The notes under the pieces are model-generated. The model had not been told where the DNA came from, did not search any database, and saw nothing but the letters and a program-made list of their open reading frames with translations. The position numbers and the translations under genes are program-made. A DNA stretch of 64,000 bases, taken from a virus. Its lineage: Duplodnaviria; Caudoviricetes. Below, piece after piece: positions 19,721-58,572 of this stretch. Location of the stretch: IMG/VR virus record IMGVR_UViG_3300038673_000315, positions 5,412 to 69,411 of that record, one strand, 5' to 3'. Position 1 is the first letter of the stretch. Each line of letters opens with the position of its first letter.

Positions 19721-21217
19721 TTACACCATATTGTATTTATTGATAACAGACTGGTCAACACTAATGTTGCGAATTTCCACAAGCACGTTGGGCTTGTAGT
19801 ATTTCGGCACACCATACATGTTAATCAGACCGTGCATGAAACGACCTGTCCGGGCAAGATCGGTATTGTGTATCGGGAGCAACTGAGAAAATCCCATTAC
19901 ACGCGATTCGCCTGCGCTGGTCTGGTCAATGACAAACATACGCGCACATCCGGGAATGTATTCGTTTTTGTCTGCATATATAACAACTGCACCGCCAGCA
20001 GCAGCTTTTACTGTTGTCATATAGCGAAATTCTCCGCTTCCGGCAACCTTTTCTGAATAAATTTCAAAGCAGGTAGCTACTTTTGAACCAGCATCAGAGC
20101 CGTTAGGGGTAATGGCAATATCGATAGAACCACCAGCGGCGACATTTCCACCGAGAGTCACAATGTTGCACGCCTTTGAGCGACCATACGCATTTTTTGC
20201 ACATACGCGATAACGGTATGCTGCGCCGGACGGGCGAACACCGGTAGCGGTAAACTTAGAACCTGTTGTCCCGGTCTGAGCGGTCAATGTAATTGACGGA
20301 GTTCCGGGAGCTTTTTCGCTGGTCGCACCTTCAACCCATGATGCGGTTGACTGATCGAAATACTGCGGGACAACCCTGTTTTCATAGCACATTCCGAGAA
20401 GTTTGTCGCTGCGAACCTGCATTGTTCCGAACGGGGTTTCAATGCTGCGGGTTCTCGCGCCAAGAGTCAGGTTTTTATCGCCTGAGTTCATCAGCATGGT
20501 GTTAATGGTCGCGTCACGCGATCCGGAGATAATGTCGTGAATTGATTTTACCCCGGCAGGGGATGAATAAATCTTCGCATTATCCGGATTACCATTGCTT
20601 TCTTCAATGAGCTGTGACACAAGATTGAACACACTCTGTGAAATTGCAGCACCGCGCAAGTCGCGAACCTGATCCGCGCTCTGTTCTGAAATAGTTTTCT
20701 CCAGACCGTTAAAAGAAAGGGGAACCATTTCGTCATTGCCGGTATAGAGAGCCATGTTCAGATTGCGCAAAAGACGCATCATGGCCGAACGCTGTACGCG
20801 GGTTTTCGAGTCGATGATTTTCCGGGTAGCCTGTTCAACATCACCAACCTGCCAGCCTTCAGACATATAACGAATAATCGCAATGTCCTTTTTGAAAGCG
20901 GGGTCGCGAAATTCAGGGTTTTCCATCTGTCCGACAAAACCGCCATCGGACAGGCCGTGTCCGAGCTGCTGGTCATACTCTTCAACGGTCGAGAATGCCT
21001 TCAGCTTGTTAATGTCTTTCCACAGGGTAAAGTCCTGTTCGTTCAGCGTCAGGTCTGCAAGCATACCCTCAAGTGATTGCATGGTGAGAACGCCGCCAGA
21101 TGTTTCATACATACTGTCCACGCTTTCAGGCGCAAGTAGTGCCTTTGCCAGCCCGTCAACTTCAACAGAAGAAGCTGCACCGAGCTGAGTAGAGTCGAGA
21201 GAAAAAAGATCGTCCAT
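19721..21217 (-). CDS. Major capsid protein (SPO1/Twort-like type)
   Basis: 498 aa; GLAK|ALLAPESV...SGGVLTMQSLEGMLADLTL...STVEEYDQ parallels the Twort/K capsid pattern (VVK|S...GALRREILDDQITMLT); follows protease and scaffold. Confidence 0.88.
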   Translation of the reverse strand: MDDLFSLDSTQLGAASSVEVDGLAKALLAPESVDSMYETSGGVLTMQSLEGMLADLTLNEQDFTLWKDINKLKAFSTVEEYDQQLGHGLSDGGFVGQMENPEFRDPAFKKDIAIIRYMSEGWQVGDVEQATRKIIDSKTRVQRSAMMRLLRNLNMALYTGNDEMVPLSFNGLEKTISEQSADQVRDLRGAAISQSVFNLVSQLIEESNGNPDNAKIYSSPAGVKSIHDIISGSRDATINTMLMNSGDKNLTLGARTRSIETPFGTMQVRSDKLLGMCYENRVVPQYFDQSTASWVEGATSEKAPGTPSITLTAQTGTTGSKFTATGVRPSGAAYRYRVCAKNAYGRSKACNIVTLGGNVAAGGSIDIAITPNGSDAGSKVATCFEIYSEKVAGSGEFRYMTTVKAAAGGAVVIYADKNEYIPGCARMFVIDQTSAGESRVMGFSQLLPIHNTDLARTGRFMHGLINMYGVPKYYKPNVLVEIRNISVDQSVINKYNMV

Positions 21218-29204: not shown

Positions 29205-29975
29205 TTAATCCTTTTTCCAGAATGCGTTCCATAATCCGAAAATAATCAATAGTACACCAATGAGATTGAGCCAAAAACCTTCAAGCATCATTGTATTGAA
29301 ATAATCATTCATGTCATGGTCAACCCCGATAAAGACATTGCTATATACATCTTCGTTGACAGGCGCAACTATCGACAGGTGAGAGCCAAACTCATCATTG
29401 TTGCGGATGTATTGGACGGTTTTTGAATGTATTACATCGACAAATCCATCCATGTTATCCGTTACGAATTCATAGCCACTGAAAATTTCGTCACCGTACA
29501 TCATGTCCGCATCAAGCACAAATATAAGTTTAGGAGAATTATCGGATTCCGGGAATACAGGCAGGTAAATATAAATATATTGTGTGCGCCCGATCTGATT
29601 GACGCCTTTGAGTATCAGAATAAGTTTTTCAGCATCAGGGTTTTCCTTTATTAGCTTTTTAACATTTTGTGCAAGCTGCCGCCTTTGCGCATTATCATCA
29701 AGAGCGGCAAAAACTAATTCCTGATTAAGCATTAAATAATCATAAATAACATCAAGACCGGTATGATTTTTTTCTATCATCTCTCGTGAGTAAAGCATTG
29801 ATAGCATGAGTTTTGATTTTACATCTTCAATGCGCCCCTCACTGATTCGGTGCATCTGGATTCGGTGGATTGTAACCATTGCCATAGTCACAATCAAAAG
29901 CATAAAAACAAGATTGCCAAAAGTTTTGAAAAAGCGTGTGATTTGAAACTTGTGTTTCCAGAACCATTTTTGCAT
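29205..29975 (-). CDS. Membrane protein with extracytoplasmic Cache/PDC-like sensor domain and no output domain
   Basis: TM near each end; YIYIY..IFVLD..DEFGSHLSIVAPV..FIGVD pattern of Cache-type sensors. Confidence 0.5.
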   Translation of the reverse strand: MQKWFWKHKFQITRFFKTFGNLVFMLLIVTMAMVTIHRIQMHRISEGRIEDVKSKLMLSMLYSREMIEKNHTGLDVIYDYLMLNQELVFAALDDNAQRRQLAQNVKKLIKENPDAEKLILILKGVNQIGRTQYIYIYLPVFPESDNSPKLIFVLDADMMYGDEIFSGYEFVTDNMDGFVDVIHSKTVQYIRNNDEFGSHLSIVAPVNEDVYSNVFIGVDHDMNDYFNTMMLEGFWLNLIGVLLIIFGLWNAFWKKD

Positions 29976-29979
29976 ATCG

Positions 29980-30483
29980 TTACCCCTTTTTAATCAGAAT
30001 AGAACCGCATGAATTTTTAGCCCTGTTTTCACAATATTCAAATTCATCATCGAGAACACCAGAAAGCGGGAAAATCATAGTAAACCTGATATTATTCTTT
30101 TTGACCGCATCTGCGCACACATACCTGATTGCATCCCTTGTCGTATCGTTAAACGTCACGGCACGGGTAAAGTCAAACACCAGTGTTTTTCTTTGTAATC
30201 TTGCCTGCTGCAACTGTTCAAGGAATACTGCTTGCAGCTCGAACAGATTGTCAACAATAATCGTTTCTTTGTATATAATCTTGTATTCCTGCTCAAGACT
30301 GATGGAGTCAATATTTAATTTTGCCTTTATCTTGTCCGTGCGAAAGATTGCACTCCAAAGACTTATTATTTTATCCACTGCGTTTATCTTTTTGAATACC
30401 ACTCCCAGAAAAGTGATAAACCCAAAAAGAATAGTATAGAAAACGCTCTGTGAGTCAACTGTAAGCAATGACGAAATATCCAT
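29980..30483 (-). CDS. Membrane-anchored STAS-like protein
   Basis: N-terminal TM; LVFDFTRAVTFNDTTRDAI resembles the STAS core. Confidence 0.45.
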   Translation of the reverse strand: MDISSLLTVDSQSVFYTILFGFITFLGVVFKKINAVDKIISLWSAIFRTDKIKAKLNIDSISLEQEYKIIYKETIIVDNLFELQAVFLEQLQQARLQRKTLVFDFTRAVTFNDTTRDAIRYVCADAVKKNNIRFTMIFPLSGVLDDEFEYCENRAKNSCGSILIKKG

Positions 30484-30917
30484 TAACCGCCTCTCTTTTT
30501 GACGCCACCCAATCGGTCAGCCCAATTCTCTGGAAATCTATTGTAATAACCTGACCGCAACTTCGGGAAAATACGGCAGGCAATGACATTCAATGACGAT
30601 GGAATACCAACAATAAAAAGATAAAGCCAGCCAAGATAAAAACTCTGTATCGTATGGCCGTATTCGTGTTTTATTAAGGTGCGGTCCTGCGAACATCCAG
30701 ACTTGACAATGATTATTCTACCGCACGACACCCCACGCGCCCAAAAATAATCAGTTTCGTATATTACCGCCTGTTTGTATTCACACATAAAATCACAAAT
30801 CAGCAATTCACAAAGAATAGAGCCAATCAATTCTTGTGGAAAACACCACAAAGAAAAAAACAGTTTTTTCATTAGTTTCAACATTTTCACTTTACCACTT
30901 TTGTCAAGATTTTTCAA
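30483..30917 (-). CDS. Membrane zinc-metalloprotease-like protein
   Basis: LIKHEYGHTIQS HExxH motif, hydrophobic segments, downstream E.WAD.LGG. Confidence 0.65.
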   Translation of the reverse strand: MKNLDKSGKVKMLKLMKKLFFSLWCFPQELIGSILCELLICDFMCEYKQAVIYETDYFWARGVSCGRIIIVKSGCSQDRTLIKHEYGHTIQSFYLGWLYLFIVGIPSSLNVIACRIFPKLRSGYYNRFPENWADRLGGVKKRGG

Positions 30918-31153
30918 ATGCCCATTATTTTTTTTATAGACGCTTTGGTTATCTCCATTACTTTTGACGGTGCAATACCTATTATTTTATGAGTCCAGCC
31001 GGAAATATCGGGAAATGTTACTACTATCGCACCGGGGGCACACCCCCGATAGCAGGCGAAACATATCAGTTGATACCAGAACCACCAACACCAAGAGCTG
31101 CATCATCCCCCGTACTTGTCAAATCACCACCATATCTTCTTTATCGTGTTCAT
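30914..31153 (-). pseudogene. 80-codon ORF interrupted by two in-frame TGA codons
   Basis: ATGA overlap with the OMPLA stop and TTGA overlap with the next start, both in the same frame. MNTIKKIWW*FDKYGG*CSSWCWWFWYQLICFACYRGCAPGAIVVTFPDISGWTHKIIGIAPSKVMEITKASIKKIMGI*. Confidence 0.45.
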
Positions 31154-32058
31154 AGCGATAATCCGCCCCTGATTGCAGTTTCCCGTTTGTCGTAATCAAG
31201 CATCGTTGAGCTGTAACCGTGTGTCAACTGCATAAATATTTTTGGCTGAAAACCGAGACAGTCAAGCACCGCAACAGACAAACCGGCTTCCACCCACGGC
31301 ACGCTGAAATTTACATGACTGTAAATAGTGCGCTCTTTACGTGATCCGGAAAACCCAGCCTTGCAATATGCCTCGAACGTTTTCCAGTAATTGGATCGCA
31401 GGAAAAGTTTGCATTCAGTCCTGCCTATGTAATCAAAATAATCTGCATTTTTTCCGCTGACGGAAAACGGAAAATAATATTTGCCATACAGACCTGCTTC
31501 GATTTTACCGTGTGTTGCTAATTGTCCGTCCATGTAATAGTAATTGATTGACCGGCTTTCCTCTCCGTCACGTCCGTTGGATTTATGCCGTACACCAGCG
31601 CCGCCGAAAATATTATGCCATTGCGGACGTAAAAAAAGCTCAGGGCTGTGGTTGTAATCATAAAATGGTGCGCTGTCTTTATCAATGTCCCAGATACAGG
31701 TTTCAGTGTAGCCTGAGAAAAGCGGGATGCTGTACGGATAGAACAACTTGTATTTTACCGACAACTGAAATCTGACCATGTGGTCAAGCTCTGACGCGCC
31801 GGCTGTAAAATAATTGTCCTCGTGCGCCGAAAGTCCGGCAAATTCGGCAGCGCGTGCCGGTGTGGCAATTGCAAGTATGAGGCATAATGTGGCGATTGTT
31901 TTGGCGACGTCAGCTTTCGATCTTTGACGCCATTCCTCTTGTTTGCCCTTGTTTGCCTGCCCCATCGGACGAAAATAACCGACGACCCGCGTCCATACCT
32001 CGCACGGGATTTTTTTTGTCCGCTGCTGGTCGTGTACTGTATCAATTAGGCTGCTCAT
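31150..32058 (-). CDS. pldA: Outer-membrane phospholipase A (OMPLA/PldA family) with N-terminal NrdD-like peptide
   Basis: Catalytic HKSNG..SRSIN (cf. HDSNG..SRSWN), VRFQLSVK, APFYDYNHSPELF and C-terminal HGYSSTMLDYD...GGLSL. Signal-like KTIATLCLILAIATPARA. N-terminal CEVWTRVVGYFRP..ANKGKQEEW. Confidence 0.85.
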   Translation of the reverse strand: MSSLIDTVHDQQRTKKIPCEVWTRVVGYFRPMGQANKGKQEEWRQRSKADVAKTIATLCLILAIATPARAAEFAGLSAHEDNYFTAGASELDHMVRFQLSVKYKLFYPYSIPLFSGYTETCIWDIDKDSAPFYDYNHSPELFLRPQWHNIFGGAGVRHKSNGRDGEESRSINYYYMDGQLATHGKIEAGLYGKYYFPFSVSGKNADYFDYIGRTECKLFLRSNYWKTFEAYCKAGFSGSRKERTIYSHVNFSVPWVEAGLSVAVLDCLGFQPKIFMQLTHGYSSTMLDYDKRETAIRGGLSL

Positions 32059-32272
32059 TGCTGCTGCTCCTGTTGTTTATGCGTTTCTCCCAATTACCAA
32101 GACCGATTAAACCGGCAATAAAACCCATTGCGCCAAGTGCAAACGTGTCCGATATGTACGCGACACCGATAATTTTTTGCACGACCACAACGGCTATAAG
32201 CACCAAAAAAAGCCGGATAAAAAATGACTTTGACAGCCAGCCGAAGCGGAGAAAGCGTTTTATTGTATTCAT
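32042..32272 (-). CDS. Holin-like protein (2 TM)
   Basis: Start MNTIKRF at 32272 (ATGA overlap with the M23 stop); two TM helices, polar tail. Confidence 0.65.
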   Translation of the reverse strand: MNTIKRFLRFGWLSKSFFIRLFLVLIAVVVVQKIIGVAYISDTFALGAMGFIAGLIGLGNWEKRINNRSSSNEQPN

Positions 32273-32703
32273 GCGCTTGCCTTTGTGAGTAGTATCATCG
32301 GGTCGATGGTTTGCCATGCGGAATTATAGACAGACAGGTGCAGATGTGCGCCGAATGAATACCCAACGTCGGCATAATTGCCGATCATGTCTCCGCATTT
32401 GACGTGATTGCCAACACTGACGACGTTTTTGGCAAGGTGGACGTACTTGCTAAAATAAATTTGTCCGTCGATAAGGTGTTGCAATATAATATAATTGCCC
32501 GCAGCAGACTCGCTTGTCAGATCCCAACGGGCCGCCTCGACGTAATGGTCAAAATCATAAATGCACAGCCCGTCAGCGATTGCACACACTGCGTCAATAT
32601 TGCCAATGCAGTCGACGCCGTCGTGGAATTGCCAGACACCGTTAAGGTTGCGTTGCCCGTATGGGCTGGTAATGGTAAAGCCTTTGACCGGTAGATGTAT
32701 CAT
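32269..32703 (-). CDS. M23 family peptidase (endolysin)
   Basis: HDGVD (HxxxD) and HLH (HxH) motifs; TSPYGQR N-terminus. Confidence 0.88.
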   Translation of the reverse strand: MIHLPVKGFTITSPYGQRNLNGVWQFHDGVDCIGNIDAVCAIADGLCIYDFDHYVEAARWDLTSESAAGNYIILQHLIDGQIYFSKYVHLAKNVVSVGNHVKCGDMIGNYADVGYSFGAHLHLSVYNSAWQTIDPMILLTKASA

Positions 32704-33153
32704 TTACTTACCGCCTTGCAATAATATTTCGCGGATTACTGACCATGCTATCATGCCAAGCACTCCAATAGCTGCGCCCATCGCCCAAAGTCTGTCTGTT
32801 TTTGACATGCTGTCAATTTTTAATTCGACATCACGTATGATTTCGTCGCGACGTTTATCGCAAAACGTCTCGCGTGCGGCTTTGTCGCTCCGGTAATGGT
32901 CGTTAGCCTTTGTTATTTCTACATCAAGCTCGTCTGATGCGAGCTTAAACCTTTCGTCAGTTTTTGCCATGTATTGCATCACGTGATCGCGGAATAATGC
33001 AAATTCTGTTTGCATTTTTACCATGTTCTCACTGCTGACGCGGTTCTCGTGGACAAGCTCGTCCACTTCTCGCTTGATTTCTGATATTTTCTTGTCGAGG
33101 AATGCTTCTAATTTGCAAAACATATCCTCGACTGACATCTCATGCGGTGGCAA
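32704..33153 (-). CDS. Coiled-coil protein with C-terminal TM (lysis-associated, putative)
   Basis: Helical, with WAMGAAIGVLGMIAWSVI TM; directly before M23. Confidence 0.5.
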   Translation of the reverse strand: MPPHEMSVEDMFCKLEAFLDKKISEIKREVDELVHENRVSSENMVKMQTEFALFRDHVMQYMAKTDERFKLASDELDVEITKANDHYRSDKAARETFCDKRRDEIIRDVELKIDSMSKTDRLWAMGAAIGVLGMIAWSVIREILLQGGK

Positions 33154-33974: not shown

Positions 33975-34194
33975 TATATTATACCTCGCAAGTATTCACG
34001 TGACCCTTCATAGGCTAATTCTTCAGTTTTGAATAAACCAACATCTCTACCATCACCACCAAGAGCCTTTACAGCTCTGGCCCTCCATCTGTTCTATTGT
34101 TTCCACCTCTTCCATCTCTGCGGAATAAAACTCCATCTACAAGTTTAAACGTATCTTTTATGATATTTTCTTTGTTTTTTATTAGTTCAGCCAT
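33974..34194 (-). pseudogene. Remnant of HNH/AP2-type homing endonuclease
   Basis: N-terminal MAELIKNKENIIKDTFKLVDGVLFRRDG, then a stop. Another frame gives AVKALGGDGRDVGLFKTEELAYEG (AP2-like GLFxTEE) ending TAATG into the next gene. No HNH core remains. Confidence 0.45.
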
Positions 34195-34195
34195 A

Positions 34196-34463
34196 TTATG
34201 AAACCTTTATGATAAAATTTACGCCAACTGACGTTCCTGCCCCTGCTGGTGCTGCACCACGGAAGTCCGGAAGATTGAATGTTGTTGAACCGTCGCCTTC
34301 TCCGTATGTCGTGCCGATGATCGCGAACAAATTTCGCAAATGTACTACGGTTTACTGCCGTACCGTCACACATCGCCCAGCCTGAAGGGGCTGATGTTCC
34401 TGCAAACTGTTTTATTGTACCAACTGTTTCTGTCGGTGTTGATTTTTTTATCAATCCTGCCAT
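34196..34463 (-). pseudogene. Tail-collar domain protein, frameshifted and short
   Basis: VGTIKQFAGTSAPSGWAMCDG.AVNRSTFA; removing one base at 34332-34334 restores LFAIIGTTYGEGDGSTTFNLPDFRGAAPAGAGTSVGVNFIIKVS*. Confidence 0.75.
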
Positions 34464-37924: not shown

Positions 37925-39592
37925 TCACAGAAGGAAAACTTTATTTCCGCGCCGATTGTCGCGGATTGCTTTTTGCATCTCTTCGCCGCCTTCGTCTTCA
38001 TCCTCTCCGTCAACGGCTTCGTCCACCATATCGTTTATGTCATCATCAAAATCGTTCGGGTCAATGTCTGCGTCACCCGTGTCTGCTCCGCCACCATCGC
38101 CTTCTGCCCCCTGCTGGTCTTGCATTTCTTTCGCCTGAAGATATTGCAGGTATGTCGGATTAAGAATAAGGTTGCCACCAACTTCAAGGGGTTTCAGGTC
38201 GTTTTCTGCCCTGATTTCGTCAATGGTTTTATATGTCCGGGCTTTCTTTTCTGCCAAATCAGCTTCAAACCCGCGATCCGTTGGATTTATGCCATTGAAC
38301 CGAAAAACAAAATCACGCGCAAAGTCATAACCGCATATACGCAAAACCTTGTTTATGTCATCGGAAAACTGGCCAAGCAGATCGAGCAAAGCCCGGCTTT
38401 TTGAAAATTTCTGCTTTGCGTCCTGATTTTCGGAAAGCACGGATTGAGCCTGATTAAAGCGCAATCCAGTTTCGGCCAAATCAGCACCCATAACGGCAGC
38501 GGTCAAAGCCCCTGTAAATTCAAGATATTTCTGATATTCCATATCGCGGTTTGACGGCAGCAGGTTCAAAATTTTGGCATCACCGTTCAGAATCGGAATG
38601 TTCCACTGACCGTCTTCGCCCTCAAAATTCGCCATCCATTCGTCTTGCATATCTTCAAGCTGTTCTGTCGTGTAGCCGGAATCCTTGCCCATTGAAACCG
38701 CAACTTTCGGAATTGCCGACCGGGAAAGGCCATTACTATTGAATTTCAGCGAATTGATAAAAGCGATGATTGCCTGATTTGCTTTTTCTACAACAGAAAA
38801 TCCCTGCTTATAGTATCGTATGTCATTGCGTTCGTTTTTGATTGAGAAAAGAAGATCATGAGCAGTGAACGCTGCGACAATGCCTCCGCCCGTGCCGTAA
38901 AGAAGTTCCTGAATATAGCAGATTTTTTCTTTCGGTGGAATTGCTTCAATTCGCGCCTCTACCAACTTATCCATGAGCGGAGTCACGCCGACACGCATAG
39001 CCCCGGCAATTTGGGAGGTCGTGCCGACAAAACCGCCCGGGAGAATAGGCAAAATGGTTGCACCGTCCAAAGCCCAGAGCGAAACAAGGCGGCCTTTGCG
39101 ATCCCTTTCGAGTTCCCAAGCAACTTTATCAATCAAAATCCTGTCACGGACATACTTCGCAAAAACTTCTTTGAACGTATGATGATCGTTCGTTATTGGT
39201 TCATAGTCTTCAACGCGCATTTCTTGAATCATGTTTTCAAGGAATTGTTTTTGTTTTTTGCGTTTAGGCGTGAGCGTTTCGTCCGGATCCTTTAAGGCAA
39301 CTTCCCATCCGGGCATATCCTTGTCGTGAACAAGGTTTGAAAATTCCTGTATCTGCTGCATTCTGAGCGTGATAACTGCGCCAACAACCGGATTGCGAAA
39401 CTCTACCAAGCGCAAAAGATAGTCGGGTATTTTATCTTTAGGGTAAACTACATTATTGTATTCGACATTATTTAGATAATCAAAAGTCATGCCGCGTTTA
39501 ACAGACCGCTTTAATTGCCGGTCAAGAGCCTTCGCGCTTTCCATCGCGCTATCATACGCGGCCTTCATCATTACTGCTGACTGTTCGTCCAT
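37925..39592 (-). CDS. Portal protein
   Basis: 555 aa; DKVAWELERDRKGRLVSLWALDGATI, GFSVVE, REYQKYLEF-type motifs; acidic tail ending MQKAI. Confidence 0.88.
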   Translation of the reverse strand: MDEQSAVMMKAAYDSAMESAKALDRQLKRSVKRGMTFDYLNNVEYNNVVYPKDKIPDYLLRLVEFRNPVVGAVITLRMQQIQEFSNLVHDKDMPGWEVALKDPDETLTPKRKKQKQFLENMIQEMRVEDYEPITNDHHTFKEVFAKYVRDRILIDKVAWELERDRKGRLVSLWALDGATILPILPGGFVGTTSQIAGAMRVGVTPLMDKLVEARIEAIPPKEKICYIQELLYGTGGGIVAAFTAHDLLFSIKNERNDIRYYKQGFSVVEKANQAIIAFINSLKFNSNGLSRSAIPKVAVSMGKDSGYTTEQLEDMQDEWMANFEGEDGQWNIPILNGDAKILNLLPSNRDMEYQKYLEFTGALTAAVMGADLAETGLRFNQAQSVLSENQDAKQKFSKSRALLDLLGQFSDDINKVLRICGYDFARDFVFRFNGINPTDRGFEADLAEKKARTYKTIDEIRAENDLKPLEVGGNLILNPTYLQYLQAKEMQDQQGAEGDGGGADTGDADIDPNDFDDDINDMVDEAVDGEDEDEGGEEMQKAIRDNRRGNKVFLL

Positions 39593-42419: not shown

Positions 42420-43802
42420 TCATTTTTTATCTGCCGACACACTTTCTCTTTTCTTTCGAGCCTGAGCCTTCAAGACTTCGCGCTTCTGCTTTCTCATTTC
42501 TTTTTTTGCGTCTATGAGTTTTTTCTTTTGATCTGATTTTTTACCTGACAGCACTCCGGGGGCTGCGTTTAGCATTGCCAAATGTTCAATGGAATATCTC
42601 ACGGCTGATATTGCATCGTCCATGATCTTTACCGGTTCATCCATCGGATTGCCGTCTTTATCTTTCCGCCATTGATACTGTTCAAGTTCTTGCATGAGTC
42701 GCGGGCATTTCTCCGCATCAATAACCCATTTCGGGAACGATTTTAGGTAATCAATCGTCCTTTGCACCGATCCTTTGCCTTTTTTGGCCGGGGTGACGCT
42801 ATATCCGGCTTTCAGCATTGCATTTCCACGCGCCGGGTCTTCTGAGTCATACACAACGCGCTGCTGCTTCGGTATAAACCGAAACTCTTCGATCAGGTCA
42901 ATATAATCATCATTAGTTGTTTCATACGCAACCAATTCGTCAAAGGTATAAAGTACTCCGTCAATTATAGTACTGAGTACAAGACAAGTCGGGTGATTGT
43001 AGCCAAAATCAAGGCCAGCAAGAATATCTGTTGTGTCGAGTGAATCGCGAGAAACCGGAAGTTTCCCGTTTTCATAGTTTGAAAATATCCGTCCTTCGGC
43101 AACACCCCACTGCCCCAAAGCATAAATATTGTAAAAATTCTGGTCATAATCTTTGAAACCTTCGAGCGTTTCGGCATAATCTTTAGTCAAAAACGGGTTG
43201 TCCTTGTATGTCGAGTGGTGAAGCATTGAAAAGCTTGAATATTCCGTTGAATCAAAAAAATATTTTTTGATCCAGTTCTTTGAGCTAACCGGATTAAGCA
43301 TTAGTGTGAATTGGAAATAATTTTTTGACTGTCCGCGCAATCGAATAAGCAACTGCCGGAATGAGTCAATATTTCCTTCGCTTGCCTCTTCAAATATAAC
43401 GCGCTCAAGAATCCCGCTCCCTCCGGGAAAAGAAATTGACTTCAACCTTTCCACATCGTCAAGGCCGCGATAATAAATAATAGCTCCGTTTGCGATACAC
43501 TCAAATGTCATGTCAGTCTTGTTTTCCTTGAACAAGTCCTGAAGCCCGAAACGGTTTATGATTTGTTTGGTCAGCGCAAAAGTCGAAGTCCTGTTGGAAG
43601 TCGCGGTCTGCCTAACAACAAGATAATTACAGGCATTTGTTATGACATTATATATCATTTCCGAAAAGACAAAATAACTTTTTCCGCTTCCCGCTCCGCC
43701 CTTTAGAACGCGAATTTTTTTTTTACTTTCAAACACATCCCAGAACGTCCGTGGGATGCAGTCGTAAAATCGGGAAAAGTCAACAACAACCTTTTTACCC
43801 AT
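42420..43802 (-). CDS. terL: Terminase large subunit (PBSX-like)
   Basis: Walker A GGAGSGKS, Walker B VIFEEASE, NP motif, nuclease GLDFGYNHP and DDAISAVRY. Confidence 0.93.
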   Translation of the reverse strand: MGKKVVVDFSRFYDCIPRTFWDVFESKKKIRVLKGGAGSGKSYFVFSEMIYNVITNACNYLVVRQTATSNRTSTFALTKQIINRFGLQDLFKENKTDMTFECIANGAIIYYRGLDDVERLKSISFPGGSGILERVIFEEASEGNIDSFRQLLIRLRGQSKNYFQFTLMLNPVSSKNWIKKYFFDSTEYSSFSMLHHSTYKDNPFLTKDYAETLEGFKDYDQNFYNIYALGQWGVAEGRIFSNYENGKLPVSRDSLDTTDILAGLDFGYNHPTCLVLSTIIDGVLYTFDELVAYETTNDDYIDLIEEFRFIPKQQRVVYDSEDPARGNAMLKAGYSVTPAKKGKGSVQRTIDYLKSFPKWVIDAEKCPRLMQELEQYQWRKDKDGNPMDEPVKIMDDAISAVRYSIEHLAMLNAAPGVLSGKKSDQKKKLIDAKKEMRKQKREVLKAQARKKRESVSADKK

Positions 43803-44506
43803 TACTCTTCAGTCTCTCTTGCAGCGGGTTTTATCACAATTTCAATTGTCTTTGTTTCGTCTTCTGTTTTCATCATGTTTTGAATTTGCGCCCGAACCTT
43901 CAATGCTTCAAGTTTTGAATACATTTTGACTTTGATATTTTCGTCAACACCATCCTTTGTGTTTTTGCGAATGTATTCGATTGACTGTATTGCTTTTCTG
44001 GCGTGTTCGGGAATGTCGTCAAGCGTCTTGACTGAAAGCGTTCCGCCCTTAAGATCGATAACTTCAGATATATCGGCAAGAGCAAGAGCATGAATTTGAT
44101 TATATGTTTTGCCCTTTTCAATGTCCGTTTCGCGGTCTTTCCAAATTTTAGAATATATTTGCTTGATACCCGCAATTATCTTATCGGTTCTTAGAAGATC
44201 ATAAGCCCGAACGCTGGCAGCATTGTATGAGCATTTGGGATAAACCAGCATATAAGCCCGCGTACCATTGCCGCCATTTTCGACATACGCATAACAGAAC
44301 GCACGGTGTAAAGGTGAAAGTTTATCAAGCGGATCGCTTTCCAGTTCCATTTTCATTTTTTCATGTATTCCCCTTTTTACGGGGGGTGTTTTTCTTTTGG
44401 CCTTTGGTTTTTCCGGCAATGTTTCCGCTTTTGTCTCTGGCAATGTTGCCGTCTCCGTTTCCGCTGTATCCGGTCTTTTTGGTTTTTTGATTTCTATTTC
44501 TGACAT
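43802..44506 (-). CDS. terS: Terminase small subunit
   Basis: HRAFCYAYVENGGNGTRAY...SYNAASVRAYDLL HTH; KIKMYSKLEAL-type C-terminus; directly before terL. Confidence 0.85.
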   Translation of the reverse strand: MSEIEIKKPKRPDTAETETATLPETKAETLPEKPKAKRKTPPVKRGIHEKMKMELESDPLDKLSPLHRAFCYAYVENGGNGTRAYMLVYPKCSYNAASVRAYDLLRTDKIIAGIKQIYSKIWKDRETDIEKGKTYNQIHALALADISEVIDLKGGTLSVKTLDDIPEHARKAIQSIEYIRKNTKDGVDENIKVKMYSKLEALKVRAQIQNMMKTEDETKTIEIVIKPAARETEE

Positions 44507-47276: not shown

Positions 47277-47744
47277 CTAAAACATGTAAAGACACACACC
47301 CTTTGCACCAACAAACCCCTGTCCCAACACAAGAGAGCAGCCGATGCCGATGCCGCCGAAAAGACGGACATAACCAGTATCGAGAAAAGCCCCAGAGATT
47401 CCATAGCCAACACCCCCAATTATCATATTTTCCGGTCTTTCAAGATTGATCCTTGCTTCTCTCGACCATCTTCTTTCAACCAACCCCGCTTCCGCTTTGA
47501 CAGTATCGCCTGCAATGGATATTTCAAGCATTGGTCTGTCGGTATAATACTTTTGAAGTTGCTCTCGCAGTTCTCTTTCTGTCATTGCCGAAACTTCACG
47601 ATATACGATCCGGTCTTTCCATTCTATTTCTTTTTGAGTTATTGTTTTCACTTCCGGTTTCGCGCTGTAATATCCTCCGATCCACCCGCCCGCAAAACAC
47701 GCAAAAGAAAAAACGAGAAAAGCCGTCACAACATACCTGTTCAT
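47277..47744 (-). CDS. Membrane protein: N-terminal TM, coiled linker, C-terminal amphipathic beta-strands (spanin-like candidate)
   Basis: Start MNRYVV at 47744 (AGGTGG SD); Gly/aromatic alternating C-terminus ending YMF. Confidence 0.5.
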   Translation of the reverse strand: MNRYVVTAFLVFSFACFAGGWIGGYYSAKPEVKTITQKEIEWKDRIVYREVSAMTERELREQLQKYYTDRPMLEISIAGDTVKAEAGLVERRWSREARINLERPENMIIGGVGYGISGAFLDTGYVRLFGGIGIGCSLVLGQGFVGAKGVCLYMF

Positions 47745-47902
47745 GCTTGCCACCTATTCTATTTTCGATTGATAATTGATATATGTTAAAAATGATTTTT
47801 GTGAGGATGGAGAGAACGCCGCCAACTGGAAACAACAGAAAACCAGTTGACGGCATACCCAAAGGAGATATTCGATATACCCAAGCAACCGCAGATATTA
47901 CA

Positions 47903-48178
47903 TTACACCGCTTCTAATTTGTCAACGACATTTTTCCTGTCATGGTAACGCTTCAAACTGCGTTCCTTCAGGGCTTCGCGGTTTTTTTGATAATATGACG
48001 CCGCCCTGTCTGGGTTGTAGTTTTCCGGCTTGTAATTCAATTTCGCCCTGCATTTTTTACAGAGTGGTAAAGGCTTTTTTGTTCGGCTGTCCACGGAGAA
48101 ATTGTCAAGCGGCAAATATTCACCGCACCCCATCCCTGCTTTATTTTGGCATATTTTTTTGACTGTTTCTGTTATCAT
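47903..48178 (-). CDS. Zinc-finger protein (HNH-associated type finger)
   Basis: CQNK..MGCGEYLPLDNF...LCKKC; YYQKNRE helix. Confidence 0.55.
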   Translation of the reverse strand: MITETVKKICQNKAGMGCGEYLPLDNFSVDSRTKKPLPLCKKCRAKLNYKPENYNPDRAASYYQKNREALKERSLKRYHDRKNVVDKLEAV

Positions 48179-50520
48179 TGTATTAGTTCCTCTTTTGCGT
48201 TTTCCTGTATTGCGTCCGGTTCCTGAATGCCACCAGTTGTAGTATATGACAAAACCTCTTCGCGCTTCATGTTCATCATTGCCTGTGCCGCTTCCATGCT
48301 GACAAATTTCCGGCTTCTGCGTGTGCCTGACTGGTCTGTTTGTATTTCAATCATTTGTTCAGATTGCAGCAGTGTTTCGATAATGTCTTTGCGGACATAG
48401 GACGGGACATTCTGTGTTTTTCTTGTTATCTGTGAAAGAGTCATTCCGTTTGTGCCTGATTCGCGGATTGCCTTCAGTACACGTTTAACCTCATGCTCAT
48501 GTGAGCTGTCGGCAACATGATTTTCCGCGATAAAGAAGGTATGATCCGAAAGGTGTTTTGCAAGCGCAATTCCGTAAAGCATTTCCCGTTCTGTTATTAT
48601 CGGCTCAAAATCAAGCCTTGAAACACTGGCAATAAGTGATATTTGTTCGGCCATCAATGCAGTCCTTGCGTAAAGAGTGTCTGGCCTTCCTTGTGTTCTC
48701 AGTCTTGCCCTGAATTTGTGAATATCCCGGCAAAAGTCATGTAGTATGCTGGTGGCTTGTTTGGTCATGCGGTAACACTGCGGATTGCATTTTATCTCCT
48801 GAATAGTCCCTGCTGCTGATGGATTTATCGGCAAATCGTGCAGCTTGACAATCCCGTTCATAAGTGCGGGTGACGGGTTGACCGCCAGATCAATGCGGTT
48901 TCCGTGTTCGTCAAATATCCTTGTTTCCGGGTCTGGATCGTCTGATTCAAAAATCATCATCCGCGATAAAAAACCGTCAGACAGATTTTCAACAGTCAAC
49001 CCCTTGTAGAGCGTGTCCGGTACTGTCGTGCCGTACAGGCAAAGGTTTGGGCAGTCCACGGTTATATTGTTTTCACGGCTGGCATAGATTTTACCATGCC
49101 ACACAGATGAAGATGAAGAGTATAGCTTCATAAGAACAGAAACGACATTGTAAAGGTGCGGATTATTGCTGCTGCTGGTGGTTCTTATAAACCGTCCTAT
49201 TTCATCCAAAAGAAAAAGCTGTGACGGTGAAAGGGCGATTGCTGAAGAAATTGCCGCATCTGACGCAATGTCTTCAACTTGTGCAAGGTGAGAAAGTTCG
49301 CACTCTCCCAAAAGTTTCTTTATCGCGCTTCTGGGTGCGTCTTTCCCGCAACCGCTCGCACCGACACCCAAAACATAAATATTTGTTCTGGCATCTGATT
49401 CCGTTCGCACCTTGCGCCCGGCTAAAGTGCCAACAAGTGCAAGACTTGCAGCGAGTGACAATATTGGCTGCGGTTTGATTGATCTTGCCATGATGTACCG
49501 CTGAATTTCACCAATCAGCCCGTCACATTGCAAAAGGTGATTCGGAAAAATTTCTTCTTTTTTATCTTCACACGACTGGTTTATCACTTCAAGGTTGACG
49601 CCGCCGCTTCCGTTGTTAAATTCCAAAGCCGTTAGATTTATACCGTATTCACGCGCCAAATTGTTACAGTCTGCGGTCGTGATCGTTGACACCCATCCGT
49701 TTTTTTTCGCCTCATGAAAGAGACTTGCAAGAGTAATTTCATGCACCCGTAGCCCGTTCCATCGTTTTCTCTGATCTTCAGGGTTGTATTTTTCTGAAAG
49801 TTTTGACCATTCATCCCAAAGGCCAAAAGCGGAAACTGAACCGGTTGACTTCAAGGCCATGCCTATTCTGATCCATGTATCGCGATCATCTGCGTCAATG
49901 TATGCAAGGGCTGACCGGATTTCCCTGACCTCTGTCTGGTCAAGGACATTCGCCCGCATGACCGATTCCTGTATTTCTGTTTTCTTTTTATACTCTTCAA
50001 TCCATGCCGGTAAAATTGCGCATCGGCTGTGCAGTGTGCGGATAATGTCAGTTTCATCTTCTGTCGTATCGTAAAAACAATAATTTGCGCCGTTCGGAGC
50101 GCATACATACGATCCATTTGCGCGAATATCAACAGGAATAGATTTATCGAGAAAACGCGCTTTCCCAGACAAAAGCGTATCTGATTCAATGCGGTAATAC
50201 AGGTGACGACCGCCCGACATTGTTTCGACTTCGAGCGTTTCCGGCAAATCGCCGTATTTCTCTTTCACCAGTTCCTTAAATTCATCGACACTGCGAATAT
50301 CTCCGTCTTTATTTATGTCGATGTCAATAACGACAATTTTATTGGTGTTCCCGCACGGCAGGCCAATATTAAAGTCAGAGCGGTAAAATTGGGTTTGAAG
50401 TATGGCAGTGTCTGTTGTTGCGGCATAAAAACCGTTGGCGATTGCCGGTGTTTTGTTTTTCGTACAAGCGAAAATGCTTAATCCGCTTTCGGCATAGGCT
50501 TCAATGTAGTTCTTTAGCAT
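48175..50520 (-). CDS. Bifunctional DNA primase-polymerase with PriCT-2 and DUF3987-type ATPase domain
   Basis: NIGLPCG...VVIDID...GGRHLYY (Prim-Pol); DDRDTWIRIGMALK..WDEWS (PriCT-2); GASGCGKD and LLDEIG ATPase motifs. Confidence 0.88.
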   Translation of the reverse strand: MLKNYIEAYAESGLSIFACTKNKTPAIANGFYAATTDTAILQTQFYRSDFNIGLPCGNTNKIVVIDIDINKDGDIRSVDEFKELVKEKYGDLPETLEVETMSGGRHLYYRIESDTLLSGKARFLDKSIPVDIRANGSYVCAPNGANYCFYDTTEDETDIIRTLHSRCAILPAWIEEYKKKTEIQESVMRANVLDQTEVREIRSALAYIDADDRDTWIRIGMALKSTGSVSAFGLWDEWSKLSEKYNPEDQRKRWNGLRVHEITLASLFHEAKKNGWVSTITTADCNNLAREYGINLTALEFNNGSGGVNLEVINQSCEDKKEEIFPNHLLQCDGLIGEIQRYIMARSIKPQPILSLAASLALVGTLAGRKVRTESDARTNIYVLGVGASGCGKDAPRSAIKKLLGECELSHLAQVEDIASDAAISSAIALSPSQLFLLDEIGRFIRTTSSSNNPHLYNVVSVLMKLYSSSSSVWHGKIYASRENNITVDCPNLCLYGTTVPDTLYKGLTVENLSDGFLSRMMIFESDDPDPETRIFDEHGNRIDLAVNPSPALMNGIVKLHDLPINPSAAGTIQEIKCNPQCYRMTKQATSILHDFCRDIHKFRARLRTQGRPDTLYARTALMAEQISLIASVSRLDFEPIITEREMLYGIALAKHLSDHTFFIAENHVADSSHEHEVKRVLKAIRESGTNGMTLSQITRKTQNVPSYVRKDIIETLLQSEQMIEIQTDQSGTRRSRKFVSMEAAQAMMNMKREEVLSYTTTGGIQEPDAIQENAKEELIQ

Positions 50521-55576: not shown

Positions 55577-55868
55577 TACACAAATGGATATTGAAATTCT
55601 TTTTTCAAATGCTCAAATTTTCTTTGGAAATTTCAAGAATTTTCTCAAAGAGAAAAATCGGAGATATGGCGACAGTGCATTGAAGCCGGTAAAAATTTTC
55701 AACAAGACCGATAGCAAAAATTCAATCCTGATCCGTCTTGACGACAAGATTAACCGCATTATCAATTCCGATGAAATAAGAAAAAACGACATGGCCGATA
55801 TTCTTGGCTATGTCGCTTTATACATGATTGCAAATGGCTGGACAGATTTTGACGATCTGTTAGATTGA
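55557..55868 (+). CDS. Nucleotide-modification-associated domain 1 (DUF1599-like) protein
   Basis: KNRRYGDS...IRLDDKINRI...DILGY. Confidence 0.7.
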   Translation: MATMENNTQMDIEILFSNAQIFFGNFKNFLKEKNRRYGDSALKPVKIFNKTDSKNSILIRLDDKINRIINSDEIRKNDMADILGYVALYMIANGWTDFDDLLD

Positions 55869-56753
55869 TATTGCCGCAGTATGCTCATTCAGCACAGTGT
55901 CGTCATACATGTCAAGCGTGACTTGTGCTGAATGATGCCCTAAATATCGAGATACCGCTTTTATGTCTTTTTTCTCATTCGCAATTTTGTGTGTTGCGAA
56001 AAAATGCCGTAACATGTGGGGGTGGACGTCCTCTTTCCCAATCCTGTTTTGAAAATGATCTTTTATGAATTTCCAGAGATTGCGCCGGTCATACGGATGG
56101 CCATTCACAGAATAAAAAAGCAGCGGGTTTTTCTTGTCGGGAAAAACGGCCTCTATTTCCGAAAGTAACGATTTTGAAATGAAAATATATCGCTCTTTCT
56201 GCCCCTTGCCGATAATCCTTATCCGATAATATGCGCTATTGTCGAGGGCTTCCAGATTTTTTCTCTGCATATTTATCAATTCGCTGATACGCATTCCAGT
56301 TTCGGCAAGTGTTTTGATAATAACCATTGTTCTAATCGTTATCGGCTTGTCGCTTTTTTTGGGCTTTGTTGCAGCTTTGATTTCCTTGATTGAGAGCTGA
56401 TTATGTACACCCTTTGCAACCTTGAAGGATATTTTTTGCACGGATCGCAATAATTCAACCGGATTTTGCTGAATTACCCCGGCTTTCTGATATACTGAAA
56501 ACAGTTTCGACAGACTGGCAATTTTTCTATTTATTGTCGCGTTCGTCTGCTTCAAGTTTCGCAAGTGTAGTATGTAATTTGACACATCGGAAACGGTCAC
56601 GCTCTGAAAATCCTTGCCTACAAAAGCAAGAAAAAGTTTCAGGTCTGATTTATATGCAGCCTGTGTTTCTTTGCTTAATGCCGTCCATGATGCTTCAATC
56701 AAATCTGTTGAAATATCTTTTTTCTTTACTGTTTGTATTTCGTTTTTTTTCAT
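55860..56753 (-). CDS. Tyrosine recombinase (XerD/integrase family)
   Basis: TGMRISE, GKGQKER, HMLRH, LGH, YD catalytic residues plus SAM-like N-terminus; likely start MKKNE at 56753. Confidence 0.9.
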   Translation of the reverse strand: MKKNEIQTVKKKDISTDLIEASWTALSKETQAAYKSDLKLFLAFVGKDFQSVTVSDVSNYILHLRNLKQTNATINRKIASLSKLFSVYQKAGVIQQNPVELLRSVQKISFKVAKGVHNQLSIKEIKAATKPKKSDKPITIRTMVIIKTLAETGMRISELINMQRKNLEALDNSAYYRIRIIGKGQKERYIFISKSLLSEIEAVFPDKKNPLLFYSVNGHPYDRRNLWKFIKDHFQNRIGKEDVHPHMLRHFFATHKIANEKKDIKAVSRYLGHHSAQVTLDMYDDTVLNEHTAAISI

Positions 56754-56769
56754 CTTTGCTTGTCCTTTG

Positions 56770-58572
56770 TTAAAACATAAGTTCGCATAAACGGTCTTCG
56801 TCACTTTTTATCTTTAACGGTGGCGGAGTTTCACCGAAAGAGCCAATACTCTTATTTTTTGTTATTTCTTCGTACATTGCTACTTCGGACAATGTACTTT
56901 TGGCAAGAGGATTGCGCTCAAAAGGTGGATCGAAATTATATCCTAATATTTTAGGAAATTTCCCGTTTTGGTCAACTAATATTTGAGATGGATGTAAAAA
57001 CCTATCTTGAAGTTTTACCGCCTCTTCGATTGTTTTTATTGGCTGATCGGGAAACCTTCGCTTTATCCAACTTTCCGCCTTTGCACCTGCAATTCCCGCA
57101 TGTTCAACGCAAATCCATTCAGACACGCGCTCCGTCATGTTGACATAATAGTCAACGCGCATAGTGTCTTGTTTTCCGCCCTTGCCCTTGTGCCTAAAAA
57201 AAACAATATCGACAATATCACACACCTGTGGTTCTTTTTTTGTGGATATTATTTCAAGATTTGACGCCGTGGTGTCGTGATTTATTTCCACTTCTCTTGG
57301 AAATTCAAAGCCGCATTCCGGGCAATCCCTGCATAAAACATGACAAGGCGATTGACATTTTGGGCATATTTTTTGCGGTACTGTTTTTAATTTTTGCTCT
57401 CCATTCCCTGCTGCATAATCGTGAATAATTTCTATTTTGTCAATAGCCCCGTGACGTTCAATATTATGCCCAAAGTCAAGAACAAGAAAATCTTCTTTAT
57501 CTGGATGAAGTCTGAAACCGCGCCCGATTTCCTGAACATAGAGACAGGTTGACATGGTGGAATGAAGCAACACTATGCCGTCAACCGCCTTTTCGTTGAA
57601 ACCCACGGTTAATATTCCAATATTTACAATATATTTTATATTTCCACTTGAAAAATCACGCACAATTTGGTCATTGATTTCGCTTTTTTGTCCAGAGTGT
57701 ATAACGCCGCACGATTGACCATATTTTTTGAGTTCAGCCTCGATGTGATGGCAGTGATCTATTCCCGCACCGAAGATTATCACCTTTTTGCGATTATCCA
57801 TGTATGCAATAATTTCTTTTACTGCGGCCTGTACTTTTTTGTCAACGTCAAAGGCTTTTTGCAGTTCCTCTTGAACAAACTCTTTTTCATCCCCTTTCCC
57901 AACAGTCCTTATATTTGACACGTCAACAGATGCGACACCGCATTTTGATACTGGTGGACAGAGATACCTTTTCCCGTCCCTGTTTTTGGGATGCTGCGGG
58001 TCAATGAGTTCGTCAACTCCCGTTTCGTGACATATTTCGTCAAAAAGCCTTTCCCTACCCTTTGTCAGCAATCCGCCTTTCAGCCTATATCCTGTTGCGG
58101 TAAAGCCGACAATGACAATGTTTGGGTTTATTTGTTTGGCCACTGTCAAAAACTTGTGATATATGCCCATCGTTTTATGTGGCACTCTGTGCGCTTCGTC
58201 AATCAGTATCGCATCGAACGCCCCTATATCATACGGCTTTGAGTATATTGACTGGATTCCGGCAAAAATTACACGCGCATATCTGTCACGCTGGTTCAAT
58301 CCGGCTGAATATATTCCCGCGACAGAGCTGTGCATTGTCGTGTTGTCGAGAAATTCCGCATGGTTTTGTCCGATAAGATATTTTTGGTGTGTGAGGACAA
58401 GAACGCGAGTTTCGGGAGTTTTCAATATTTCTTCAACAATATTTGCAATGACAAGACTTTTTCCACTTCCCGTTGGAAGTATTGCCAACGGGTTTTTGCC
58501 GGGCTTTGTTGCGGTAAAATGAAGTATCGCATCAAAGCAGTCTTTTTGATAGTATCGCGGTATAAATTTCAT
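56770..58572 (-). CDS. SF2 DEAH helicase (RadD/YejH-like) with zinc finger
   Basis: PTGSGKS, DEAH, TAT, QEIGRGFR, CPKC..CPEC. Confidence 0.9.
   Translation of the reverse strand: MKFIPRYYQKDCFDAILHFTATKPGKNPLAILPTGSGKSLVIANIVEEILKTPETRVLVLTHQKYLIGQNHAEFLDNTTMHSSVAGIYSAGLNQRDRYARVIFAGIQSIYSKPYDIGAFDAILIDEAHRVPHKTMGIYHKFLTVAKQINPNIVIVGFTATGYRLKGGLLTKGRERLFDEICHETGVDELIDPQHPKNRDGKRYLCPPVSKCGVASVDVSNIRTVGKGDEKEFVQEELQKAFDVDKKVQAAVKEIIAYMDNRKKVIIFGAGIDHCHHIEAELKKYGQSCGVIHSGQKSEINDQIVRDFSSGNIKYIVNIGILTVGFNEKAVDGIVLLHSTMSTCLYVQEIGRGFRLHPDKEDFLVLDFGHNIERHGAIDKIEIIHDYAAGNGEQKLKTVPQKICPKCQSPCHVLCRDCPECGFEFPREVEINHDTTASNLEIISTKKEPQVCDIVDIVFFRHKGKGGKQDTMRVDYYVNMTERVSEWICVEHAGIAGAKAESWIKRRFPDQPIKTIEEAVKLQDRFLHPSQILVDQNGKFPKILGYNFDPPFERNPLAKSTLSEVAMYEEITKNKSIGSFGETPPPLKIKSDEDRLCELMF

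Follow-up and report, generated by a model that had tools for sequence, protein, structure and literature searches.

The 64,000-nucleotide stretch analyzed here (the window, bases 5412–69411 of the 69,411-base, linear IMG/VR record IMGVR_UViG_3300038673_000315, a virus of the Caudoviricetes) encodes a phospholipase A of the outer membrane (OMPLA) that is translated behind genes for an M23 metallo-endopeptidase and a holin-like protein. Profile search, alignment and structure prediction together confirm that a 302-amino-acid open reading frame (ORF) contains a real, intact OMPLA barrel, fused in frame to a small gene that resembles the C-terminal glycyl-radical tail of NrdD. From sequence, model and analogy with known systems, we suggest that the phage OMPLA may help to open the outer membrane at lysis, a reading that we consider a serious possibility, a little short of probable. 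Our searches of the PubMed Central (PMC) and bioRxiv literature found no description of phage OMPLA or pldA in lysis. New in this work are the mapped fusion junction, a twin module without OMPLA, and the repeated adjacency of NrdD-tail genes to OMPLA or lysis genes.

A previous sequence-only reading of this DNA had described a row of four genes on the minus strand between 33153 and 31150, and all four are present at those positions, overlapping or abutting one another. The genes and the parts of the last one, with the evidence for each, are:

32704–33153, minus strand: coiled-coil-like protein, 149 amino acids, tail-anchored by one C-terminal transmembrane (TM) segment at residues 122–140 (ORF and TM prediction)
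32269–32703, minus strand: M23 metallo-endopeptidase, 144 amino acids, without signal peptide (PF01551 and phrog_3578)
32042–32272, minus strand: two-TM holin-like protein, 76 amino acids, charged C-terminus (hydrophobic segments)
32058–31150, minus strand: 302-amino-acid ORF comprising NrdD-tail-like part, signal core and OMPLA barrel (Pfam, alignment, model)
31891–32058, minus strand: gene resembling the NrdD C-terminal glycyl-radical tail, codons 1–56 of the 302-amino-acid ORF, with its own Shine-Dalgarno (SD) sequence and ATG (PF13597, free homologues)
31849–31890, minus strand: predicted hydrophobic core of the OMPLA signal peptide and signal-peptidase-type site A-R-A, residues 57–70 (alignment to P0002 and P0003)
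31150–31848, minus strand: mature OMPLA barrel, residues 71–302 and stop codon (PF02253, alignment, AlphaFold2 and Foldseek)
31587–31585, 31581–31579 and 31545–31543, minus strand: catalytic triad H158, S160 and N172 (alignment to 1qd6 and 7ezz)

The translational coupling proposed for OMPLA behind the M23 and holin-like genes holds. The ATG of the two-TM gene, from which its homologues are also called, overlaps the M23 stop as ATGA, and the start of the 302-amino-acid ORF overlaps the two-TM stop by 17 nucleotides, with AGGAG 8 nucleotides 5′ of its ATG. The M23 protein is the candidate endolysin of the module: it matches PF01551 (E 1.5e-13, 51.2 bits, cut-off 28.7) and an endolysin family, phrog_3578 (E 4e-19), and carries both zinc motifs, HxxxD as HDGVD at residue 27 (H27) and HxH as HLH at residue 120 (H120). 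The 76-amino-acid protein has two hydrophobic segments, of which one is strong and the other Gly-rich. No holin family was found for it in Pfam or PHROG, a sub-threshold DUF5493 match being the only Pfam signal, and we call it holin-like from its features, namely its size, two TM segments, charged tail and overlap with the M23 gene. The 149-amino-acid protein matched no Pfam or PHROG family; it was considered as an inner-membrane spanin and rejected, the position of its TM segment at the C-terminus being the reverse of that topology. When IMG/VR was scanned with the M23 protein and with the coiled-coil protein singly, neither gave a match.

The identification of the last gene as an OMPLA (PLA1) was borne out by the PF02253 profile (E 1.9e-26; 93.6 bits, where 27 is the cut-off, and 93.5 bits in a six-frame search of the record), the match spanning profile positions 53–257. 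At no more than about 22% identity to the solved structures, the ORF aligns with the E. coli and Salmonella enzymes (7ezz/1qd6) with the HxSNG...N motif in register (HDSNG...SWN in the references). The catalytic triad is intact, as had been claimed: H158, S160 and N172 align with H142, S144 and N156 of E. coli OMPLA, and H158 and S160 do not vary among 70 homologues, the third residue varying between N, D and E across the clade of compact OMPLAs described below. S129, R163 and S168 fall at the aligned positions of the calcium site, whose E. coli residues are S106, R147 and S152, and are its probable equivalents. At all positions with 90% or more conservation in the 70-sequence alignment, invariant ones included, the window barrel keeps the conserved residue.

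The AlphaFold2 model has a mean predicted local distance difference test (pLDDT) score of 84.6, with block means mostly above 85 over residues 81–302 and about 60 in a loop near 241–250; it has 13 strand elements, in keeping with a twelve-stranded antiparallel barrel. When the model was searched with Foldseek, the eight best matches in the Protein Data Bank (PDB) were all OMPLA (including 1qd5, 1qd6 and 7ezz), with target-normalised template-modelling scores of 0.68–0.75 and E of about 1e-11, and the next fold was OmpG at E 1e-4. The beta-barrel C-terminus that had been read from the sequence stands in part: the modelled barrel runs to the end of the protein, but the ORF ends in Leu and not in an aromatic residue. 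A role as a virion or entry enzyme was rejected, on the ground that the protein has a signal peptide and forms an integral barrel.

Residues 71–302 are thus OMPLA, but residues 1–56 are a fused NrdD-tail-like small gene. Within them, residues 6–46 match the extreme C-terminus of NrdD (PF13597 positions 532–560, E 4e-5) at 22.9–23.5 bits, under the cut-off of 26.2, which the homologue in contig L002 exceeds with 30.7 bits. The radical-loop motif, R-V-x-G-Y followed by N-x-G-K-x-x-E, is present in the window and conserved in free homologues, G27 being the apparent equivalent of the radical glycine. Codons 1–56 align at 46–61% to free-standing ORFs of 54–60 amino acids in contigs L002, L096 and L011, and also to a 60-amino-acid ORF of L187. 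Residues 57–70 align with the cleavable signal peptides of two 260-amino-acid homologues, P0002 and P0003, and lie partly within a helix (37–64) of the AlphaFold2 model; cleavage would follow A-R-A.

The junction could be placed by DNA alignment with a module that lacks OMPLA. The two are near-identical, in places without a mismatch over more than 200 bases, up to 31892 (codon Ala56), similarity ends at 31892/31891, and from codon 57 the ORF continues in frame into the OMPLA signal core. The alignment indicates that an OMPLA gene without its own start and n-region is joined to the 3′ end of the module's small gene. An internal start at M32 was rejected as the main start because it lacks an SD sequence, and the hydrophobic core has no other in-frame start ahead of it. 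Since no in-frame, SD-preceded start lies nearer the signal core, OMPLA has to be made with a 56-residue cytoplasmic extension, and because this NrdD-tail peptide replaces the n-region, export is a prediction.

The OMPLA-less module came from a search with the two-TM protein, which has 93%-identical homologues on five contigs; L187–L190 are the loci retrieved from four of them. At the protein level, the identities to the window are 93% for the coiled-coil TM protein (matched by a partial ORF upstream of M23 in L188), 94% for M23 (L187:38–472) and 93% for the two-TM protein. In L187–L190 the two-TM homologue directly follows M23 and precedes a free 60-amino-acid NrdD-tail gene. The comparison indicates that the coiled-coil TM, M23, two-TM and NrdD-tail genes form a mobile four-gene module common to several phages. 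Because this module is present without OMPLA in the closest relatives, OMPLA is an add-on to it and not a fixed part, and because the flanking module is near-identical in DNA to that of phages without OMPLA, the arrangement is young. OMPLA as an obligatory third step of the cassette is therefore not supported, as modules 93–94% identical carry no OMPLA. The mapped junction and the OMPLA-less relatives together provide a natural with/without pair.

The free NrdD-tail gene recurs beside lysis-type genes, after M23 and holin, after Amidase_2 and, with 4-nucleotide overlaps, after OMPLA (L187:683–865; L006:16538–16705; L096:8741–8917; L011:5685–5864; L002:8022–8186). A full nrdD gene was found neither in the record of the window nor in those of the other phages that carry an NrdD tail, and L002's record has no OMPLA, though the NrdD-tail gene is present. 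A spare-part principle for glycyl-radical enzymes is established for pyruvate formate-lyase (PMC8683613), and the spare-part proteins GrcA/YfiD and T4 Y06I are free-standing radical-loop proteins that resemble the first 56 codons; detached NrdD radical subunits are a further parallel. Unlike GrcA/YfiD, the window loop is of NrdD type, lies in a lysis module and is fused to an exported-type protein. The spare-part idea accounts for the NrdD-tail protein but not for its lysis-gene neighbourhood, and the recurrence of a ribonucleotide-reductase radical loop beside lysis genes is a separate puzzle.

A relative of the window phage carries OMPLA in the same slot. The portal of contig L006, a complete 85.7-kb genome with terminal repeats (G001), is 59% identical to the window's, and its 254-amino-acid OMPLA (PF02253 E 5e-21) is 32% identical to the window's and likewise lies between the portal and a head-morphogenesis gene. 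The gene order there is a TM/coiled-coil protein, a 185-amino-acid protein, a 65-amino-acid TM protein, OMPLA, an NrdD tail that overlaps the OMPLA stop by 4 nucleotides, and a Cys-rich lipoprotein with an LSGC lipobox. The TM/coiled-coil protein also carries Cys residues, and with the lipoprotein on the other side of OMPLA it could be a separated spanin pair; if it is, OMPLA would assist spanins in that phage and not replace them.

The 185-amino-acid protein belongs to a family of 184–185 amino acids (L006:15010–15567; L033:5760–6314) that adjoins OMPLA in these two contigs, has no Pfam or PHROG family, and keeps Cys53, His143 and Asp160 invariant. It is modelled at a pLDDT of 95, and its structural matches are weak and nearly all to papain-fold peptidases and amidases. 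Amidase_2 and M23 are both missing from the L006 genome. Pfam matched 75 of its 126 ORFs to 44 families, and a strong wall-hydrolase match is not among the 25 best of these, so the papain-like protein would be its best endolysin candidate, possibly of a new type. The same genome also encodes UDP-galactopyranose mutase, two glycosyltransferases, a radical SAM protein and an integrase, which hint at host surface modification and possibly at an activase for the radical-loop protein.

In a profile search of 1.84 billion representatives, 69 clusters were retained at E <1e-30, most of them compact proteins of about 240–290 amino acids. A FastTree tree separates compact OMPLAs from the long and Bacteroidales-type cellular ones with support of 100, and the compact clade holds all phage-context copies found together with one Bacteroidota chromosomal copy. 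The window OMPLA groups with those of contigs L003, P0066 and the chromosomal L009, while L006 falls in another subclade; two OMPLAs from different subclades in the same slot fit repeated acquisition of the function there. The contexts are mixed. OMPLA lies between a 52-amino-acid ORF and Amidase_2 in P0063, and in L013 behind a Peptidase_C39_2 protein that weakly matches an endolysin PHROG. Other orders are a 3-TM protein, DUF5675, MazG, OMPLA and large terminase (L003); OMPLA, an 81-amino-acid TM protein and large terminase (L008); and small terminase, a 54-amino-acid TM protein, OMPLA and an overlapping NrdD tail (L096). OMPLA follows a tail-fibre-domain gene in L011, where Amidase_2 and an NrdD-tail gene lie 2.8 kb off, and in P0066 it shares a contig with the anti-defence genes Tad3 and Apyc1; Acb2-like anti-defence also occurs near phage OMPLAs. 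Two further contigs have uninformative neighbourhoods. The linkage to lysis genes anticipated for relatives is thus seen in P0063, L013, L033 and the L006 slot and, in the form of small TM proteins or of a 3-TM protein with DUF5675, in L008, L096 and L003, but several other OMPLAs lack an adjacent hydrolase; the link is recurrent, not universal.

A metagenome scan returned mostly long OMPLAs (about 440 amino acids), of which many, to judge by the great length of their contigs, are probably cellular; L033 was the only compact one. Alignments across the wider OMPLA family diverged too far to serve in pattern scans, a degenerate DNA pattern left too few fixed bases, and a first scan of species genomes found nothing. 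In a phage collection of 50,697 deposited records, we found no near-identical phage DNA, and the OMPLA search returned, besides a Salmonella genome, only a weak match, MT839379.1, a 4.3-kb unannotated 'Bacteriophage sp.' from human faeces with a PLA1-like frame at 411–1091 that is 27% identical to that of the window across 75% of its length.

Cellular OMPLA is a damage-triggered permeabiliser of the outer membrane that is activated by the colicin-release (lysis) lipoproteins. The lysis mechanism that we propose borrows from its part in colicin release and in neisserial autolysis, and parallels mycobacteriophage LysB and the patatin cassette of phage WO. The fusion would be translated from the SD sequence and ATG of the small gene in a late operon, coupled to the holin-like gene. 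Its hydrophobic core would insert N-in, signal peptidase would cut after A-R-A to free a 232-residue OMPLA, and the host BAM machinery would place this in the outer membrane. There the monomer would lie dormant while the outer leaflet is without phospholipid, as in cellular OMPLA, until holin and endolysins collapse the envelope and the loss of lipid asymmetry brings about calcium-dependent dimerisation. The lysophospholipids and fatty acids then released would weaken the outer membrane and so either aid spanin-type fusion or take its place. If this is correct, phage OMPLA would be an enzymatic route through the outer membrane with a built-in damage sensor, parallel to colicin release and LysB.

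Cellular PldA/OMPLA (PF02253; 1qd5, 1qd6, 1fw2, 7ezz) shares family, fold, His-Ser-Asn triad and calcium-site serines with the phage copy, which differs in being compact, with a 232-residue mature form that lacks the N-terminal extension of the E. coli or of the approximately 400-amino-acid types, in its separate clade, and in its fusion behind an NrdD-tail peptide. The cellular enzyme serves outer-membrane homeostasis (see PMC9743053 and PMC13170283), and a reference cited in PMC11798529 gives a neisserial OMPLA a role in autolysis. LysB, a lipid esterase that acts as the third lysis step in mycobacteriophages (PMC5707550), is similarly a lipid-cutting enzyme of the lysis cassette directed against an outer lipid layer, but it is a soluble, cutinase-like mycolyl-arabinogalactan esterase released with the endolysin, not a barrel, and unrelated to OMPLA in sequence or fold. 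In phage WO, a 'lytic cassette' with a patatin-like phospholipase has been hypothesized to be an alternative lysis route (PMC9203015); there, as in the window, a phospholipase lies by a holin-like gene and a protein anchored by a C-terminal TM segment, but the enzyme is soluble, patatin-type (phospholipase A2-like) and of an unrelated family, and the host has no detectable peptidoglycan.

According to one report, about 15% of phages of Gram-negative hosts have no recognisable spanin (10.1101/515445). The only alternative way across the outer membrane to have been shown is a cationic peptide. Spanins (lambda Rz/Rz1, T1 gp11) and phiKT gp28 serve the step proposed here for OMPLA, outer-membrane removal after holin and endolysin (10.1101/515445); unlike OMPLA, neither is an enzyme, spanins acting by membrane fusion and gp28 by insertion of a cationic peptide. 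In the window, the absence of an Rz/Rz1-type pair from the cassette was upheld: there is neither a TM protein with a lipoprotein partner nor an overlapping spanin-type ORF, and strict and lenient scans of all frames of the lysis block found no lipobox ORF, embedded or overlapping. Over the whole 69-kb record, the strict scan found nothing on the coding strand and the lenient scan a single match, just downstream of the primase gene and outside the lysis block:

47277–47753, minus strand: lipoprotein-like protein, 158 amino acids, lenient lipobox F-A-C, Gly-rich hydrophobic C-terminus (lenient scan)

This protein fails the strict lipobox pattern, has no Pfam or PHROG family and shows no clear C-terminal TM helix in predictions; it is a candidate for a unimolecular-spanin-like or SlyB-like lipoprotein. 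With this protein and the TM/lipoprotein pair of L006 remaining as spanin candidates, a spanin-independent route is no more than a possibility.

Several findings weigh against a part for OMPLA in lysis. The nearest relatives of the module do without OMPLA and pass from the NrdD-tail gene to a small gpW-like ORF (named from its resemblance to gpW; our tools gave it no match), a lambda-type portal, protease and capsid. Several phage OMPLAs have as neighbours no recognisable hydrolase but genes for terminase, tail fibres or anti-defence, and such neighbourhoods are ordinary hot spots for accessory genes. L009, a member of the window's own subclade, is plainly chromosomal in a Bacteroidota-like contig, its neighbouring PFOR gene being 72% identical to those of Bacteroidales metagenome-assembled genomes; this neighbour is also the sole, indirect pointer to the host. 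The active site of OMPLA faces the outer leaflet, so that it needs a prior loss of lipid asymmetry. The window protein has lost its own n-region, bears an N-terminal extension of 56 residues and owes its export to prediction, and no other NrdD-tail/OMPLA fusion occurs among the 230 retrieved proteins. A spanin, finally, could be the 47277 protein or lie in the missing part of the genome (about 19%).

The varied neighbourhoods, including Tad3, Apyc1, Acb2-like and tail-fibre-domain genes, would suit an OMPLA that acts on the outer membrane for purposes other than lysis: upkeep of asymmetry and barrier once host synthesis is off, which would avert premature lysis; vesicle release or surface change that excludes superinfection; or less sticking of progeny to debris. 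That the cellular enzyme serves homeostasis and that the same lysis module occurs without OMPLA in other phages also fit, but translation couples the window OMPLA to holin-like and endolysin-like genes, at least three other contigs have a wall hydrolase next to OMPLA, and no sequence feature is specific to exclusion or vesicle functions; we judge this explanation unlikely. An auxiliary role beside a true spanin (the 47277 protein, the product of some unsequenced gene, or a TM and lipoprotein pair like that of L006) seems to us rather improbable. The lipoprotein-like N-terminus and Gly-rich hydrophobic C-terminus of the 47277 protein speak for it, as do the record's completeness of about 81% and the Cys-bearing TM/coiled-coil protein and LSGC lipoprotein that flank OMPLA in L006; against it, the 47277 protein adjoins primase and has none of the stricter marks of a spanin (strict lipobox, family, clear C-terminal TM segment), and the lysis block has no embedded or overlapping lipoprotein ORF. 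That OMPLA is a passenger, the recent product of illegitimate recombination, poorly exported or inactive and simply undecayed, would explain a join inside the signal peptide with native start and n-region gone, flanks so near to those of OMPLA-less phages (more than 200 identical bases) that the join must be young, and a fusion unique among the retrieved proteins. Yet the 232-codon barrel is uninterrupted, with conserved positions kept and a confidently predicted fold, the hydrophobic core, positive flank and A-x-A site are retained, and a good SD sequence precedes the in-frame join, which together make a passenger very improbable. Beyond help in opening the outer membrane, which we continue to prefer, lies a bolder proposal: that compact phage OMPLAs are distinct enzymatic disruptors of the outer membrane, preloaded and triggered by holin/endolysin damage, which do the spanin's job in phages of Bacteroidota-type anaerobes, the fused NrdD tail serving in the window as a cytoplasmic n-region by which export or timing is tuned. 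We regard this larger claim as doubtful.

The phage itself is a tailed, myovirus-type and probably temperate one. CheckV put the completeness of the record at about 81%, no tRNA genes were found in it, and scans for promoters and terminators showed nothing distinctive around OMPLA. The genes of the window identified by PHROG, which also include two helicases, lie nearly all on the minus strand. Those that characterize the phage, all by PHROG match, and a second hydrolase with its neighbour are:

5171–6934: tail sheath
19721–21217: major head protein
37925–39592: portal
42420–44506: large and small terminase
48175–50520: primase
55860–56804: tyrosine integrase
29131–28583, minus strand: Amidase_2 (PF01510 E 1.4e-19, and PHROG amidase/endolysin families)
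28674–28276, minus strand: two-TM ORF overlapping the Amidase_2 gene (TM segments)

Two pairs of a wall hydrolase and a holin-like gene therefore lie within 28–33 kb, M23 with the 76-amino-acid two-TM protein and Amidase_2 with its two-TM neighbour, and with the genes between both pairs, 28.0–33.2 kb is an envelope/lysis block. Between the pairs, at 29205–30917, are three membrane-protein genes, of 144 amino acids, 167 amino acids (N-terminal TM segment) and 256 amino acids (a TM segment at each end), which matched no Pfam or PHROG family and have a GC content of 37.5–39%, below the 44–52% of the block from M23 to OMPLA. On the other side of the cassette, a tail-collar-type motif (GW..CDG ... 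GDGSTTFNLPDFRG) is divided between two overlapping frames, 34182–34463 and 34196–34339, which suggests a frameshift or a sequencing error in a fibre gene. Nearby, three ORFs share a similar N-terminus, MAGL(I/V)K or MAELIK.

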